Positions 15,661 through 18,273 of a DNA stretch of 64,000 bases are shown one piece after another (position 1 is the first letter of the stretch; each line of letters begins with the position of its first letter). The notes beneath the pieces are model-generated. The model saw only the letters and a program-made list of their open reading frames with translations, was not told the origin of the DNA and did not search any database. Source of the stretch: a plasmid; NCBI RefSeq assembly GCF_056746865.1, contig NZ_JBWKMP010000002.1. One strand, given 5' to 3'. Both the position numbers and the translations under genes were made by a program.

Positions 15661-16608
15661 ATGGCAGCTGAGCACGTCCAAACTATAGACCTTACAAACT
15701 TCTCGGGAAGGATTTTCTTTCTGGCAGATCCTCATGGACATTACTCTGCGCTGTGCAACTTGATTCAATCAGTTACAAAGCCAGAAGAAGAGATAGTAAT
15801 TTTCTCTACTGGAAATTTGTTTGACTATGGGCCGGAACCCATAGAGTTGATGAAGGCGATAAACAGTGGCTTTTTCGATGGACGTTTTGTGAGGCATTTC
15901 TCAGCTGCCGGAGCCGGAGAAGAAATGTTAAAAAAATTGTTACCATTAAACAAAGACCGGAGAACATTTTACCCCAGCACATACCTCAATGAGAGATGGT
16001 GTGTAATGGGCGGAAAGTGGCATAAAGCTGTAAATCGTTACTATTTAGAGGAAGAGGTAAAAAAACTTCTTAATACCCAGCTTGGTACGATGATGCAGAT
16101 TTTACTCAAAGGCGATATAAAAATTGGGGTTTGCCCTTCTGATTACGCCCCTATCCGCACATCATTCACTGATACTTATAATGCGCTTCAAGCATTCAAC
16201 TATGCCAATGTGAATATTTTTCAGAGCCAGTTTCTATTCGGTATGGACCATGCCGTAATACCAATGATGATAAATGACGTCAACCTTATGGTCCTAGGTA
16301 GGAATCCTGTAAACAGCATTCGAAAAGCCCATGGTCGTACTCAAAACAATCTTCCAGTACTGATCGGTAATTGTTTACATATAAATACTGGATCACTCTA
16401 TATGTCAAAATTAGAAGACCAGGTAATAGTTGCTCCGGGTATACCGCCAACTGACTCACCAGCACTTACATTAGTAGAAATAATCATGAAGAACAATCCA
16501 GTTTTATTGTGTCATCAGCTAATACAAACAACAAACAAGTTTTATTCACTTAAAACCTATCCGTTAGAACTCGATTCGATTGAAAACAACATTGAGGTAA
16601 CAAGATGA
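15661..16608 (+). CDS. Diverged metallophosphoesterase-like protein (calcineurin-like fold suspected)
   Basis: 315-aa ORF with an N-terminal FFLADPHGHY motif resembling the D-x-H-G metal-binding motif I of calcineurin-like phosphoesterases, followed by GNLFDYGPEP at the position of motif II. No clear GNHE motif. First gene of a translationally coupled plus-strand operon. Confidence 0.45.
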   Translation: MAAEHVQTIDLTNFSGRIFFLADPHGHYSALCNLIQSVTKPEEEIVIFSTGNLFDYGPEPIELMKAINSGFFDGRFVRHFSAAGAGEEMLKKLLPLNKDRRTFYPSTYLNERWCVMGGKWHKAVNRYYLEEEVKKLLNTQLGTMMQILLKGDIKIGVCPSDYAPIRTSFTDTYNALQAFNYANVNIFQSQFLFGMDHAVIPMMINDVNLMVLGRNPVNSIRKAHGRTQNNLPVLIGNCLHINTGSLYMSKLEDQVIVAPGIPPTDSPALTLVEIIMKNNPVLLCHQLIQTTNKFYSLKTYPLELDSIENNIEVTR

Positions 16609-17132
16609 AGATAAAATGGAAGATTATCTCAATTTCAACATTACTTTTGCATCTTCACGCAGCAGCTGCACCACATCAAGAGAAAGAGCAAAGAAAAGAT
16701 GCTTTTTCTTCTGCCGCTCAGAAAAGTGATTCACTTATATCTGCTAAAGCGGAGCTTATAAACGGAAGGTGGTTTATAAATGGTAAATATAGGCCTGTTC
16801 TAAAGACCAGCATGACCAAAACCAATTTCTTAGAAATCATGAATGTTTCAAATAAAGAATCACTTTTTATGGTGATACCGAAACTTGAGTATAATATCAT
16901 TGCCAAAAATAAAATCTTACTAAATGAAAAAATTGCATTAAGCGAAGGCACATCCGGAAAAAGCATTATTTGGGTCGAGCCTAAATCAAGTATAACTATA
17001 TCGTTTATAAATGACCTTGCTAATACGCCCCTTCAGGCTATCGTTTCGATCACAAGAAACAACAAAGATGTAATTGCCATCTTTGGACCGGATCAGGGTA
17101 AAGGGTTTACTCTTCCCGGGAAAGACATCTAA
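16605..17132 (+). CDS. Exported protein of unknown function
   Basis: 175-aa ORF whose start overlaps the upstream stop (ATGA); N-terminal signal peptide (MKIKWKIISISTLLLHLHAAAAP). Confidence 0.5.
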   Translation: MKIKWKIISISTLLLHLHAAAAPHQEKEQRKDAFSSAAQKSDSLISAKAELINGRWFINGKYRPVLKTSMTKTNFLEIMNVSNKESLFMVIPKLEYNIIAKNKILLNEKIALSEGTSGKSIIWVEPKSSITISFINDLANTPLQAIVSITRNNKDVIAIFGPDQGKGFTLPGKDI

Positions 17133-17442
17133 TGATCAAGTGTCCGTTCCTGACGATTCTGATCTAAATATAAAAAAACTTAACATACCTCAAAGTGTTG
17201 GTAATTCAGTAACCATCAATCCTAAAGAGAAGAATTACCTCTTAGTTGGACAAGTAAAATATAAAATCTTATCTCTTCCGAAATATCAACATTTAGAATT
17301 TTCTGAACCGGTTTATATTGAGAAAAGAAAAGATATCCTCGGTGGTTATCGTTATTGGACGAAAGAAACAATTCTCTACCCCGGTGAATCATTATCTTTT
17401 ATAACCAGCGCCAAAAACAATCTAAGGAAGCGGGATGATTAA
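17074..17442 (+). CDS. Hypothetical protein (start uncertain)
   Basis: 122-aa ORF overlapping the 3' end of the previous gene in another frame; the true start may be internal. No motif. Confidence 0.3.
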   Translation: MPSLDRIRVKGLLFPGKTSNDQVSVPDDSDLNIKKLNIPQSVGNSVTINPKEKNYLLVGQVKYKILSLPKYQHLEFSEPVYIEKRKDILGGYRYWTKETILYPGESLSFITSAKNNLRKRDD

Positions 17443-17956
17443 AGTTATCACACTTTTATTGTTTGCATTACTGACTGGTTGTCAGTCAGTAGAAAGTAAA
17501 ATCGAAGAACTCCCGATAGTTGGTTTTGACCCTATTCTATACAATAAAAGTGAGGCCTTTACTGACGGAAAAGTTACTTTACGTGTCGAAAGTTCAGGAA
17601 CTGATGTTTGGCTTGTCGCCAAGAATGGAACCAGAAGTTTTATTGAGCTTTCAGGCCTAACGCTAGGTGGTAGTCGTTGTGCTTACAATGCCCGTAGTAA
17701 GCAACTTTTGCCCCCAGGCAGCGTAAGCACATTCGTAGTTCCTACGGTTGGAATGCTTGGACTTTGCTTCAACAATGAAGATCAACTTATGTTTATTAAC
17801 CGTGCTTTTAGCAGAATCTCTCCCAAAGCAAAAGGAAAAGATTCTCTTTCTCTTTTATTTTCTGTTAGTTACGATTTTCCCGGAAAAGCGGACCTAATTA
17901 ATAACCACGATTTTCAAGAGTTATATCTTTTATTTTTGAATGAGGATAATCTATGA
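17435..17956 (+). CDS. Lipoprotein of unknown function (candidate outer-membrane entry-exclusion-type protein)
   Basis: 173-aa ORF with a lipobox (LLFALLTGCQS); start overlaps the upstream stop. Confidence 0.55.
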   Translation: MIKVITLLLFALLTGCQSVESKIEELPIVGFDPILYNKSEAFTDGKVTLRVESSGTDVWLVAKNGTRSFIELSGLTLGGSRCAYNARSKQLLPPGSVSTFVVPTVGMLGLCFNNEDQLMFINRAFSRISPKAKGKDSLSLLFSVSYDFPGKADLINNHDFQELYLLFLNEDNL

Positions 17957-18273
17957 AAAAAACATTAATTGTTATTTTATTATGTTTTTGTCACTCAGTT
18001 TTAGCATATCCATACCGTATCTATACTGTCCCGGAAGGGGCATTAGTAAAAAACATACTAACTAATGAATATCTAGGAAAAACCCCTGTGGTTGTGGACG
18101 TGAGCAATACCGAAGCTGGTTCTACTTTTGGGATTTCTTTATTTAGACATGAAAATGTTGCTATAAAGATTTTTACAGTAATGCCTTCAGCAGAAAATAA
18201 TTTTGCTGTTTCTGGACTCAGATGTTGCAACTATGTCATTGCCGGGCAAAGCACCTTTAAACGTAGTAAATGA
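17953..18273 (+). CDS. Small exported protein
   Basis: 106-aa ORF with a signal peptide (MKKTLIVILLCFCHSVLA); start overlaps the upstream stop (ATGA). Confidence 0.45.
   Translation: MKKTLIVILLCFCHSVLAYPYRIYTVPEGALVKNILTNEYLGKTPVVVDVSNTEAGSTFGISLFRHENVAIKIFTVMPSAENNFAVSGLRCCNYVIAGQSTFKRSK

Follow-up and report, generated by a model that had tools for sequence, protein, structure and literature searches.

The Z operon of an IncHI2 plasmid, an orthologue of the R27 entry-exclusion region, encodes an apparent pseudophosphatase

Introduction

[quoted passage not shown] In the R27 gene table, R0015 (trhO), R0016 (eexB), R0017 (a lipoprotein) and R0018 (trhZ) are each labelled '(Z)', with R0017 listed as 'lipoprotein' only and not as an exclusion protein (PMC7366339 supplement). 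Two sources describe the Z operon of R27 as an entry-exclusion system (PMC11493245, PMC7366339), and the former locates EexB in the outer membrane and has EexA and EexB needed in donor and recipient alike. The genes trhO and trhZ reportedly raise the transfer frequency of R27 (Lawley 2003, as relayed in PMC11628540). The reported trhO phenotype could partly be a polar effect on downstream genes.

TrhR/TrhY activate the operon, an effect that HtdA opposes, and it is the only tra operon without induction at the permissive temperature (PMC7366339). R0015-R0018 are co-induced 8-17-fold in an htdA mutant (PMC7366339 supplement). IncHI2 plasmids rank among the main vehicles of resistance genes, mcr-1 and mcr-9 included, and exclusion and transfer efficiency shape plasmid spread and co-residence. 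Here we describe the corresponding stretch of an IncHI2 plasmid.

Results

Identity and layout of the operon

The window, a stretch of 64,000 nucleotides from contig NZ_JBWKMP010000002.1 (assembly GCF_056746865.1), belongs to an IncHI2 plasmid; sequence with at least 95% identity to it occurs in 1,127 plasmid records, and those examined were typed IncHI2. With a probability of roughly 0.85, the stretch considered here is the IncHI2 copy of the Tra2 'Z operon' of R27 (IncHI1), trhO-eexB-orf017-trhZ, four translationally coupled genes. The operon and its surroundings comprise the following features.

13610-15297, minus strand: flanking partition module 2, outside the operon (parM 14260-15297, parR-like gene 13610-14248)
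15298-15660: intergenic region between the divergent parM (minus) and trhO (plus)
15661-16608, plus strand: trhO, orthologue of R27 R0015; ORF of 315 aa, cytoplasmic, lambda-phosphatase fold, apparent pseudophosphatase
16605-17442, plus strand: eexB homologue (R27 R0016, 'Orf16'); 278 aa in relatives, split here
16605-17132, plus strand: ORF of 175 aa with signal sequence, 5' part of eexB
17074-17442, plus strand: ORF of 122 aa with TTG start, 3' part of eexB
17435-17956, plus strand: orf017 (R27 R0017); ORF of 173 aa with lipobox, lipoprotein
17953-18343, plus strand: trhZ (R27 R0018); 129 aa in relatives, frameshifted here
17953-18273, plus strand: ORF of 106 aa with signal sequence, truncated trhZ
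18374-18400: hairpin with 11-bp stem and T-rich runs flanking on both strands, between the convergent trhZ and parB
18405-20659, minus strand: flanking partition module 1, outside the operon (parB approximately 18405-19409, parA 19406-20659)

Direct reading of the sequence agrees with an earlier note on this DNA in its ORF coordinates, ATGA junctions, DPHGHY motif, signal peptides and lipobox, in the position between two partition modules, parM/parR-like on one side and parB/parA on the other, and in the translational coupling, which is seen in the stop/start overlaps ATGA at 16605-16608 and 17953-17956 and in an 8-nt overlap, ATGATTAA, at 17435-17442. The number of genes and the end of the operon had to be corrected: where five genes ending at 18273 had been proposed, there are four, ending at 18343.

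R27 has these four genes too, arranged identically and flanked by parM and parB, and their place within Tra2, from the htdA/parM side to the parB/trhC side and on the strand opposite to the neighbours, is as in R27 too. Identity to the R27 orthologues R0015-R0018 amounts to 70-72% for TrhO, 41-45% for EexB, 57-62% for Orf017 and 77-78% for TrhZ, in alignments that are full-length except at the EexB N-terminus; all four proteins were also recovered in three further, more distant loci (L004-L006). The genes recur in over 1,100 IncHI2 records and, at the protein level, in 1,974 plasmid records; they are real genes and not chance ORFs. Nor is the module uncharacterised, as had been considered: the Z operon of IncHI resistance plasmids is already described, and the window copy adds no new system. 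The IncHI2 genes are already named TrhO-Orf16-Orf17-TrhZ in GenBank MF344581, and UniProt, where the name TrhZ is in use as well, has an entry 'IncHI2 plasmid conjugative transfer protein TrhO' that is 98% identical to TrhO of the window; among the matches listed (cluster names, homologue searches and tblastn over plasmids) only the names TrhO, Orf16, Orf17 and TrhZ were met, and not eexA or eexB.

The promoter of the operon must be located in the intergenic region 15298-15660, in which a scan for the sigma-70 consensus passed no site. This region holds weak repeats and aligns poorly among IncHI1, IncHI2 and L004; the Shine-Dalgarno sequence AGAGGA (15651-15656), 4 nt upstream of the trhO ATG, is kept in R27 together with the ATG. 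At the other end, the hairpin at 18374-18400 is likely a bidirectional terminator between trhZ and parB. No Rfam family was found in 13000-21500.

The R27 counterparts of partition module 2 are R0014 (ParM-like) and R0013 (ParR-like) (PMC7366339 supplement). In the three more distant loci, all four genes are kept beside trhC/trhV and the htdA-side genes; ParAB is missing, trhC directly following the trhZ homologue, and L006 lacks ParMR as well. Since these relatives keep the module by trhC without ParAB, and in one case also without ParMR, it is part of the transfer region and not, as the earlier note had stated for the entry-exclusion genes of IncHI1 plasmids, of the partition region.

Frameshifts in the window copy

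The second and third ORFs form a single gene of 278-279 aa in pTB-nb4, p13E573-HI2, pC45_001 and R27, which one additional G at 17118 (GGG vs GG) splits in the window. The last gene, 129 aa in relatives, is shifted in frame by an extra T at 18218 together with two substitutions, so that its conserved C-terminus is found in an ORF at 18203-18343. Neither the eexB nor the trhZ allele of the window occurs in any of the approximately 1,120 PLSDB records carrying the region, none of which matches at 100%; all other records examined have intact Z-operon frames, while the window copy does not have four. Over 45 kb, the window differs from pTB-nb4 by about 10 indel events, mostly changes in homopolymer length, and 13 substitutions, and some of these indels fall in parB (18649 and 19023; parB is broken) and in the trhK secretin gene. 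Sequencing errors in the source record probably account for the frameshifts in eexB and trhZ; were these frameshifts real, the operon would be defective in this plasmid.

TrhO retains a phosphatase fold and has lost most catalytic residues

TrhO of the window is 100% identical to WP_000718594 of pTB-nb4, has no hydrophobic or transmembrane segment (maximum KD19 1.1) and carries DPHGHY at residues 23-28 of 315. Its description as a diverged phosphoesterase-like protein holds at the level of the fold: Pfam Metallophos matches at 6.3e-5, although only over the N-terminus (residues 17-118), a PHROG NinI-like family matches at 1.4e-7, and the best PDB match of the AlphaFold model (pLDDT 88, pTM 0.90) is the lambda Ser/Thr phosphatase 1g5b (Foldseek E 9e-13). 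PP5, ApaH and others rank next, and the matches in AFDB are Ser/Thr phosphatase 1-like proteins. The NCBIfam scores, 23.6 bits (PrpB) and 14 bits, compare with family cut-offs of 332 and 326 bits.

The metal-ligand and catalytic residues, by contrast, are mostly lost. Eleven canonical relatives and eight proteins of the TrhO clade were compared at key residues in lambda numbering. Whereas every canonical relative (11/11) keeps all 11 key residues, all eight TrhO-clade proteins carry the change D49N and lack N75, H186, D202 and R53; H76 and R162 are lost in seven each and H139 in six. TrhO of IncHI1 and IncHI2 has 8 of the 11 replaced (D49N, R53Y, N75A, H76G, H139P, R162M, H186R and D202N), retaining just the counterparts of D20, H22 and D52 (D23, H25 and D55) with H224 nearby, and more distant members of the clade have lost D20 and H22 as well. 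The second metal site is thereby gone from TrhO, as are its general acid and the arginines that bind phosphate. For selection within IncHI2, differences from MF344581 were too few and pC45_001 was used, against which trhO has a pN/pS of 0.04, a value that still comes from small counts. With its phosphatase fold, its catalytic residues gone and strong purifying selection, TrhO looks like a pseudophosphatase. Its residues rule out activity as a canonical binuclear phosphoesterase, while D23, H25, D55 and the nearby H224 may provide a one-metal site or an unconventional activity.

The exported proteins

The EexB homologue is predicted to consist of a Sec signal peptide followed by two beta-sandwich, cupredoxin-like domains. 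It contains no Cys, and its only His residues outside the signal peptide, H24 and H229, are not conserved; copper ligands (His-x-His, or Cys and His for type-1 copper) were sought and are absent, and Pfam Cu-oxidase matches only at E 0.15. Invariant are N80, N102, E125, P126 and P162. The model thus predicts a copper-less protein of two cupredoxin-like domains. Identity between the IncHI1 and IncHI2 proteins is among the lowest in Tra2, and pN/pS is 0.48 (against pC45_001, small counts); because it diverges fast, EexB is a candidate specificity determinant between IncHI subgroups. The predicted fold is that of a soluble periplasmic and not of an integral outer-membrane protein, and the reported outer-membrane location would need a partner.

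Orf017, 100% identical to its counterpart in pTB-nb4, has the lipobox LLTG|C16 with Gln at +2 and an N-terminal KD19 of 1.86. C16, C82 and C111 are invariant in eight homologues, with lipoboxes TGC, AGC, CGC, SGC and TAC, and the protein is predicted from these signals to be a lipoprotein sorted to the outer membrane. No match was found in Pfam, NCBIfam or PDB, including a profile search of PDB sequences. A PHROGs Rz-like match was set aside as spurious, being at the level of the signal peptide.

TrhZ, small and rich in beta structure, carries a Sec signal peptide (predicted cleavage VLA|YPY) and a conserved C-terminal PGKAPL...LRP.MSEP; a profile search of PDB sequences gave no match. A PEGA domain (PF08308) was not accepted, the match to residues 21-51 being sub-threshold (E 0.049); in homologues it reaches E 0.1 or better in 3 of 15 and 0.001 in none.

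Discussion

The exclusion phenotype is an R27 result; for IncHI2 the function is assigned by orthology, EexB being only about 41% identical. To this extent the earlier proposal that the exported and lipoprotein genes are entry-exclusion determinants is borne out, since the exported products include the orthologues of such proteins in R27, while for the lipoprotein itself the R27 gene table offers nothing but that word. Remote homology to known exclusion proteins, for which the earlier note had proposed a search, was not seen: none of the three exported proteins matched the TraT, TraS, TrbK or SXT/R391 Eex families in Pfam or NCBIfam (E up to 1-10), and PHROGs likewise yielded neither an exclusion family nor a defence system. 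Along these lines, the envelope proteins would be positioned at or near the H-type mating apparatus, and where both partners carry them, like-with-like recognition across the mating junction could abort mating-pair stabilization or DNA entry, with the specificity set by the fast-diverging EexB. TrhO would promote efficient transfer from within the cytoplasm, as a scaffold or regulator without catalytic activity. A more specific version is tentative: TrhO, dead as an enzyme yet retained by every IncH-type transfer region under strong purifying selection, might be a non-enzymatic cytoplasmic adaptor or regulator coupling the T4SS or its regulators to EexB, Orf017 and TrhZ, while a copper-less two-cupredoxin EexB, held at the outer membrane by Orf017, would set specificity. 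If true, a pseudophosphatase would be an accessory factor of conjugation.

The operon could instead serve mainly in donors, as an accessory to the assembly or stability of the H-type mating-pair apparatus or mating junction, exclusion being a side effect of proteins that meet across the junction. This is possible, if doubtful. It would fit the effect of trhO and trhZ on transfer frequency (PMC11628540), the constant location beside trhC/trhV and the htdA-side genes in five divergent systems, the control by TrhR/TrhY and HtdA that it shares with the tra operons (PMC7366339) and the need for EexA and EexB in the donor as well as in the recipient (PMC11493245). However, that the Z operon alone is not induced at the permissive temperature fits a constitutive protection of the resident plasmid (PMC7366339), and the literature (PMC11493245, PMC7366339) calls the operon the entry-exclusion system. 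Donor accessory function and exclusion by the Z operon overlap, and the one does not exclude the other.

Phosphoesterase activity of TrhO, which its annotations imply and by which it would signal between cytoplasm and envelope proteins as a protein phosphatase or a nucleotide phosphodiesterase, is very unlikely because the residues of the binuclear site are lost. The Metallophos match (6.3e-5), the PrpA/PrpB-type and NinI-like phosphatase matches, the lambda-phosphatase fold and the retention of D23, H25 and D55 in IncHI1 and IncHI2 speak for activity, but 8 of 11 residues invariant in active relatives are replaced, distant clade members lose even D20 and H22, and the NCBIfam scores of 23.6 and 14 bits stay far under the cut-offs of 332 and 326. 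Databases and papers that carry the annotation 'metallophosphoesterase/phosphodiesterase' may therefore misdescribe what is almost certainly no enzyme.

An anti-phage or other plasmid-borne defence system, which the earlier note had also entertained, is less probable still. A cytoplasmic enzyme-like protein encoded with envelope proteins, in families that are small and plasmid-restricted, might suggest one, yet PADLOC matched none of the four proteins (E up to 1), its place in the transfer region does not vary among divergent IncH-type systems, its regulation is shared with the tra genes, R27 already provides an assigned exclusion function and the enzyme-like component is without catalytic residues. 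A part in the plasmid partition machinery, suggested by the position between ParMR and ParAB in IncHI1 and IncHI2, can be dismissed almost entirely, as the module is kept without ParAB (L004, L005, L006) and without ParMR (L006), export to the envelope applies to three of the four proteins, and the operon is divergent from parM and convergent with parB, a likely terminator separating trhZ from the latter.

With the Z operon as the IncHI2 copy of a described system, three points are modestly new: the apparent pseudoenzyme nature of TrhO, the predicted copper-less fold of EexB and the occurrence of the module beside T4SS genes in relatives without one or both of the partition modules. The closest known system is the R27 Z operon itself, which has the same gene order, overlapping junctions, neighbours (parM/parR at one end, parB/parA with trhC at the other), signal peptides and lipobox, and nearly the same protein lengths (315/323, 278/279, 173/173 and 129/130 aa). 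It differs in protein identity, 41-77% with EexB the most diverged, and in lacking the frameshifts private to eexB and trhZ of the window.

With the PPP-type lambda phosphatase 1g5b and E. coli PrpA/PrpB, TrhO shares the fold (TM 0.73 normalized to 1g5b) and a recognizable motif I, D-x-H-G. It departs from them at GDxxDRG (GNLFDYG), GNHE (GAGE), HA (PS), GH (GR), IDTG (INTG) and WGR (FGM), in some 50 additional C-terminal residues that form a beta region and in a sequence identity of 18%. Vps29, a non-catalytic scaffold of the retromer, and other dead metallophosphoesterase-fold scaffolds likewise keep the fold without an intact binuclear site, and Vps29 chains are among the structural matches of TrhO; with E about 1e-4 and an identity of 12%, these matches do not amount to a specific relationship, and the analogy extends only to the principle of pseudoenzyme reuse. 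SufI/FtsP and the multicopper oxidases, built of tandem cupredoxin domains, differ from EexB in having three domains instead of two, at 9-15% identity, and EexB has neither Cys nor a conserved His.

Among exclusion systems, F TraT/TraS, RP4 TrbK, SXT/R391 Eex and IncC Sfx resemble the Z operon in functional class, as reported for R27, and in envelope location, TraT and TrbK being lipoproteins like Orf017. Pfam and NCBIfam showed no similarity to them in sequence. EexA and EexB are reportedly needed in both partners, whereas most other exclusion systems target a different donor protein (PMC11493245).

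Gene content of the operon

The window is from an IncHI2 plasmid: the 3.1-kb region has matches of at least 95% identity in 1,127 plasmid records, of which those examined carry the types IncHI2A, MOBH and MPF_F. As read from the sequence, a tight cluster of ORFs extends on the plus strand from 15661 to 18343, between two partition modules as the earlier note had placed it:

13610-15297, minus strand: flanking parM and parR-like gene
15661-16608, plus strand: ORF of 315 aa
16605-17132, plus strand: ORF of 175 aa
17074-17442, plus strand: ORF of 122 aa
17435-17956, plus strand: ORF of 173 aa
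17953-18273, plus strand: ORF of 106 aa
18374-18400: hairpin with an 11-bp stem and T-rich tails on both strands, between the cluster and the convergent parB
about 18405-20659, minus strand: flanking parB/parA

An AGAGGA Shine-Dalgarno sequence lies 4 nt 5' of the first ATG of the cluster, and the ORFs are joined by ATGA overlaps at 16605-16608 and 17953-17956 and, at a third junction, by the 8-nt overlap ATGATTAA at 17435-17442. The 315-aa protein, in which a hydrophobic segment was not found, carries the motif DPHGHY at residues 23-28; signal peptides begin the 175-aa and 106-aa ORFs, and the 173-aa ORF contains a lipobox, LLTG followed by C16. The ATGA junctions, the motif, the signal peptides and the lipobox had all been described correctly from the sequence, but the count of five genes and the end at 18273 have to be revised to four genes ending at 18343.

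Plasmids pTB-nb4, p13E573-HI2 and pC45_001 (IncHI2) and R27 (IncHI1) encode four genes of 315/323, 278/279, 173 and 129/130 aa. In the window, an additional G at 17118 (GGG vs GG) breaks the frame of the 278-aa gene, giving the second and third ORFs. In the fourth gene, whose true end is 18343, an additional T at 18218 and two substitutions replace the 29 conserved residues at the C-terminus; neither allele was found in about 1,120 PLSDB records. Over 45 kb, the window differs from pTB-nb4 by about ten indel events, most of them homopolymer-length changes, against 13 substitutions, which suggests, as the simplest reading, that the frameshifts arose as sequencing errors in the source record and are not biological. 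Besides the two in the operon, the indels are located at window positions 13117, 18649, 19023, 25128, 31788, 43302, 43485 and 43776; they comprise two frameshifting single-base indels in parB (+1 then -1, about 374 nt apart), further single-base indels in the trhK/TraK secretin gene (a frameshift) and in a DUF4942 gene (three), one upstream of htdA and one of 6 nt in trhC.

In the parM-trhO intergenic region, a 53-aa ORF (15453-15614, minus strand) is recorded as a hypothetical protein in the IncHI2 GenBank record MF344581. It is probably no gene, as alignment of this region with R27 and with L004, a contig with a distant relative of the four-gene module, is poor.

Correspondence with the Z operon of R27

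The cluster is the IncHI2 version of an operon described before, the R27 Z operon trhO-eexB-orf017-trhZ (R0015-R0018), with 70-72% identity between IncHI2 and R27 proteins for TrhO, 41-45% for EexB, 57-62% for Orf017 and 77-78% for TrhZ. Gunton 2008 reportedly gives the Z operon as "015, eexB, 017, eexA", in which case eexA would be R0018, that is trhZ. The IncHI2 genes are named TrhO, Orf16, Orf17 and TrhZ in MF344581, and a UniProt entry with 98% identity is entitled "IncHI2 plasmid conjugative transfer protein TrhO". The order of genes in the published R27 table, in the R27 sequence and in the window is the same, the flanking R27 genes being (gene table, PMC7366339 supplement):

R0013: ParR-like
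R0014: ParM-like
R0019: parB
R0020: parA

Orthology, synteny, translational coupling and the anatomies of the proteins are observed directly in this analysis. Modestly new are the pseudoenzyme nature of TrhO, the fold prediction for the EexB homologue and the independence of the module from the partition genes.

The R27 Z operon is activated by TrhR/TrhY, counteracted by HtdA and the sole tra operon without induction at 25 °C (PMC7366339); in an htdA mutant, R0015-R0018 rise together 8-17-fold (PMC7366339 supplement).

RefSeq annotates R27 TrhO from a start 8 codons 5' of the conserved Shine-Dalgarno sequence and ATG used in IncHI2 (R27 20184-20210 vs window 15651-15663), and many members of the R27 TrhO protein cluster have 315 aa. 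The R27 annotation probably begins the gene too early.

TrhO, a predicted pseudophosphatase

Sequence profiles address only part of TrhO. Pfam Metallophos covers the N-terminal third (E 6.3e-5), NCBIfam gives weak PrpB/PrpA matches far under cut-off, PHROGs a NinI-like phosphatase (1.4e-7) and a PDB sequence search lambda phosphatase (E 0.0017). The AlphaFold model, built from 19 sequences, is confident (pLDDT 88, pTM 0.90), and its best match among solved structures is the lambda Ser/Thr phosphatase 1g5b (E 9e-13, TM 0.73 normalised to 1g5b), followed by PP5, ApaH and Vps29. By these matches, the phosphoesterase-like fold proposed in the earlier note is present in the predicted structure.

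The metal ligands are not fully retained. Key residues were tabulated by aligning the TrhO clade to a lambda phosphatase sequence, which agrees with the 1g5b alignment at residues 10-70 and 185-211 and whose numbering reproduces D20, H22, D49, R53, N75, H76, H139, R162 and H186. All 11 key residues are kept in 11/11 canonical relatives, whereas all eight TrhO-clade proteins show D49N and have lost N75, R53, H186 and D202, and most of them also lack H76, H139 and R162. Only the equivalents of D20, H22 and D52 persist in IncHI1 and IncHI2 TrhO, and more distant members are also without D20 and H22. These losses remove the general acid, both arginines that bind phosphate and the second metal site, which contradicts an active phosphoesterase, and we conclude from the alignment that TrhO is a putative pseudophosphatase. 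In IncHI1/HI2 TrhO, D23, H25, N52 and D55 with the nearby H224 (TrhO numbering) might still combine into a single-metal or ligand-binding site. Despite the lost residues trhO is strongly constrained (pN/pS 0.04): comparison of the E. coli/Salmonella IncHI2 lineage with that of Enterobacter shows 7 synonymous differences and 1 non-synonymous.

A module of the transfer region

The TrhO family is tiny: a set of 1.84 billion proteins yields only 27 representatives at E < 1e-3. Homologues of TrhZ are present in 1,974 plasmid records. Contigs L004, L005 and L006 each encode a distant TrhO member (23-28% identity), and after it come recognisable EexB, lipoprotein and TrhZ homologues, the lipoprotein having its own lipobox in each case; trhC/trhV stands directly after the TrhZ homologue. 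ParAB is absent at all three loci and ParMR also in L006, which contradicts a partition function; the four genes are therefore a conserved part of H-type Tra2, and in IncHI1/IncHI2 the partition modules are additions on either side. In L006, TrhO (267 aa) and TrhZ (138 aa) have the sizes reported for pSIM-1-BJ01, an IncHI1B plasmid related to pNDM-MAR (PMC6657655).

In L005, a Logan SRR5240292 contig, an opposite-strand YdjM-family gene (8462-8962, minus strand) separates the lipoprotein gene from the trhZ homologue, which shows that the module can be interrupted and need not be a single operon. Between parA and trhC, the window contains a non-coding tandem array (21064-23606) of 10.4 copies of a 249-bp unit with about 68% matches between copies and no ORF of at least 90 aa; pTB-nb4 has the same array with a different copy make-up. 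Between IncHI1 and IncHI2, HtdF and HtdK (about 50%), HtdO (40%) and ParR (42%) equal EexB in divergence (window 12753-13088; L007 11813-13243), against about 80% identity for their neighbours, which indicates that several small Tra2 proteins evolve fast, not the exclusion protein alone.

Exported proteins and proposed working

For the EexB homologue, the predicted structure consists of two cupredoxin-like domains (residues 44-162 and 200-277) that lack copper. In the Orf017 family (7 clusters), Cys16, predicted to be lipidated, Cys82 and Cys111 are all invariant, the latter two probably forming a disulfide. Orf017 has Gln at +2, which by the E. coli +2 rule predicts sorting to the outer membrane. 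TrhZ, more conserved than the other exported proteins, has only a sub-threshold resemblance to the PEGA domain.

The earlier note had considered these genes plausible entry-exclusion determinants within a possibly uncharacterised exclusion, signalling or defence module. Exclusion agrees with the R27 literature; the operon had already been described, and a defence system is contradicted by PADLOC, whose defence models gave no match for any of the four proteins. For R27, PMC11493245, in citing Gunton 2008, places EexB in the outer membrane and has EexA/EexB required in donor and recipient, and PMC11628540, in citing Lawley 2003, has transfer frequency raised by trhO and trhZ. By analogy with R27, exclusion, the two-partner requirement, the effect on transfer and TrhR/TrhY-HtdA regulation would extend to the IncHI2 form. 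The three envelope proteins may be located at the H-type mating apparatus or close to it, and where donor and recipient both possess them, like-with-like recognition, its specificity set by EexB, would abort mating-pair stabilisation or DNA entry, with TrhO perhaps serving in the cytoplasm as an adaptor or regulator without catalytic activity. In profile searches EexB, Orf017 and TrhZ showed no resemblance to TraT, TraS, TrbK or SXT Eex.
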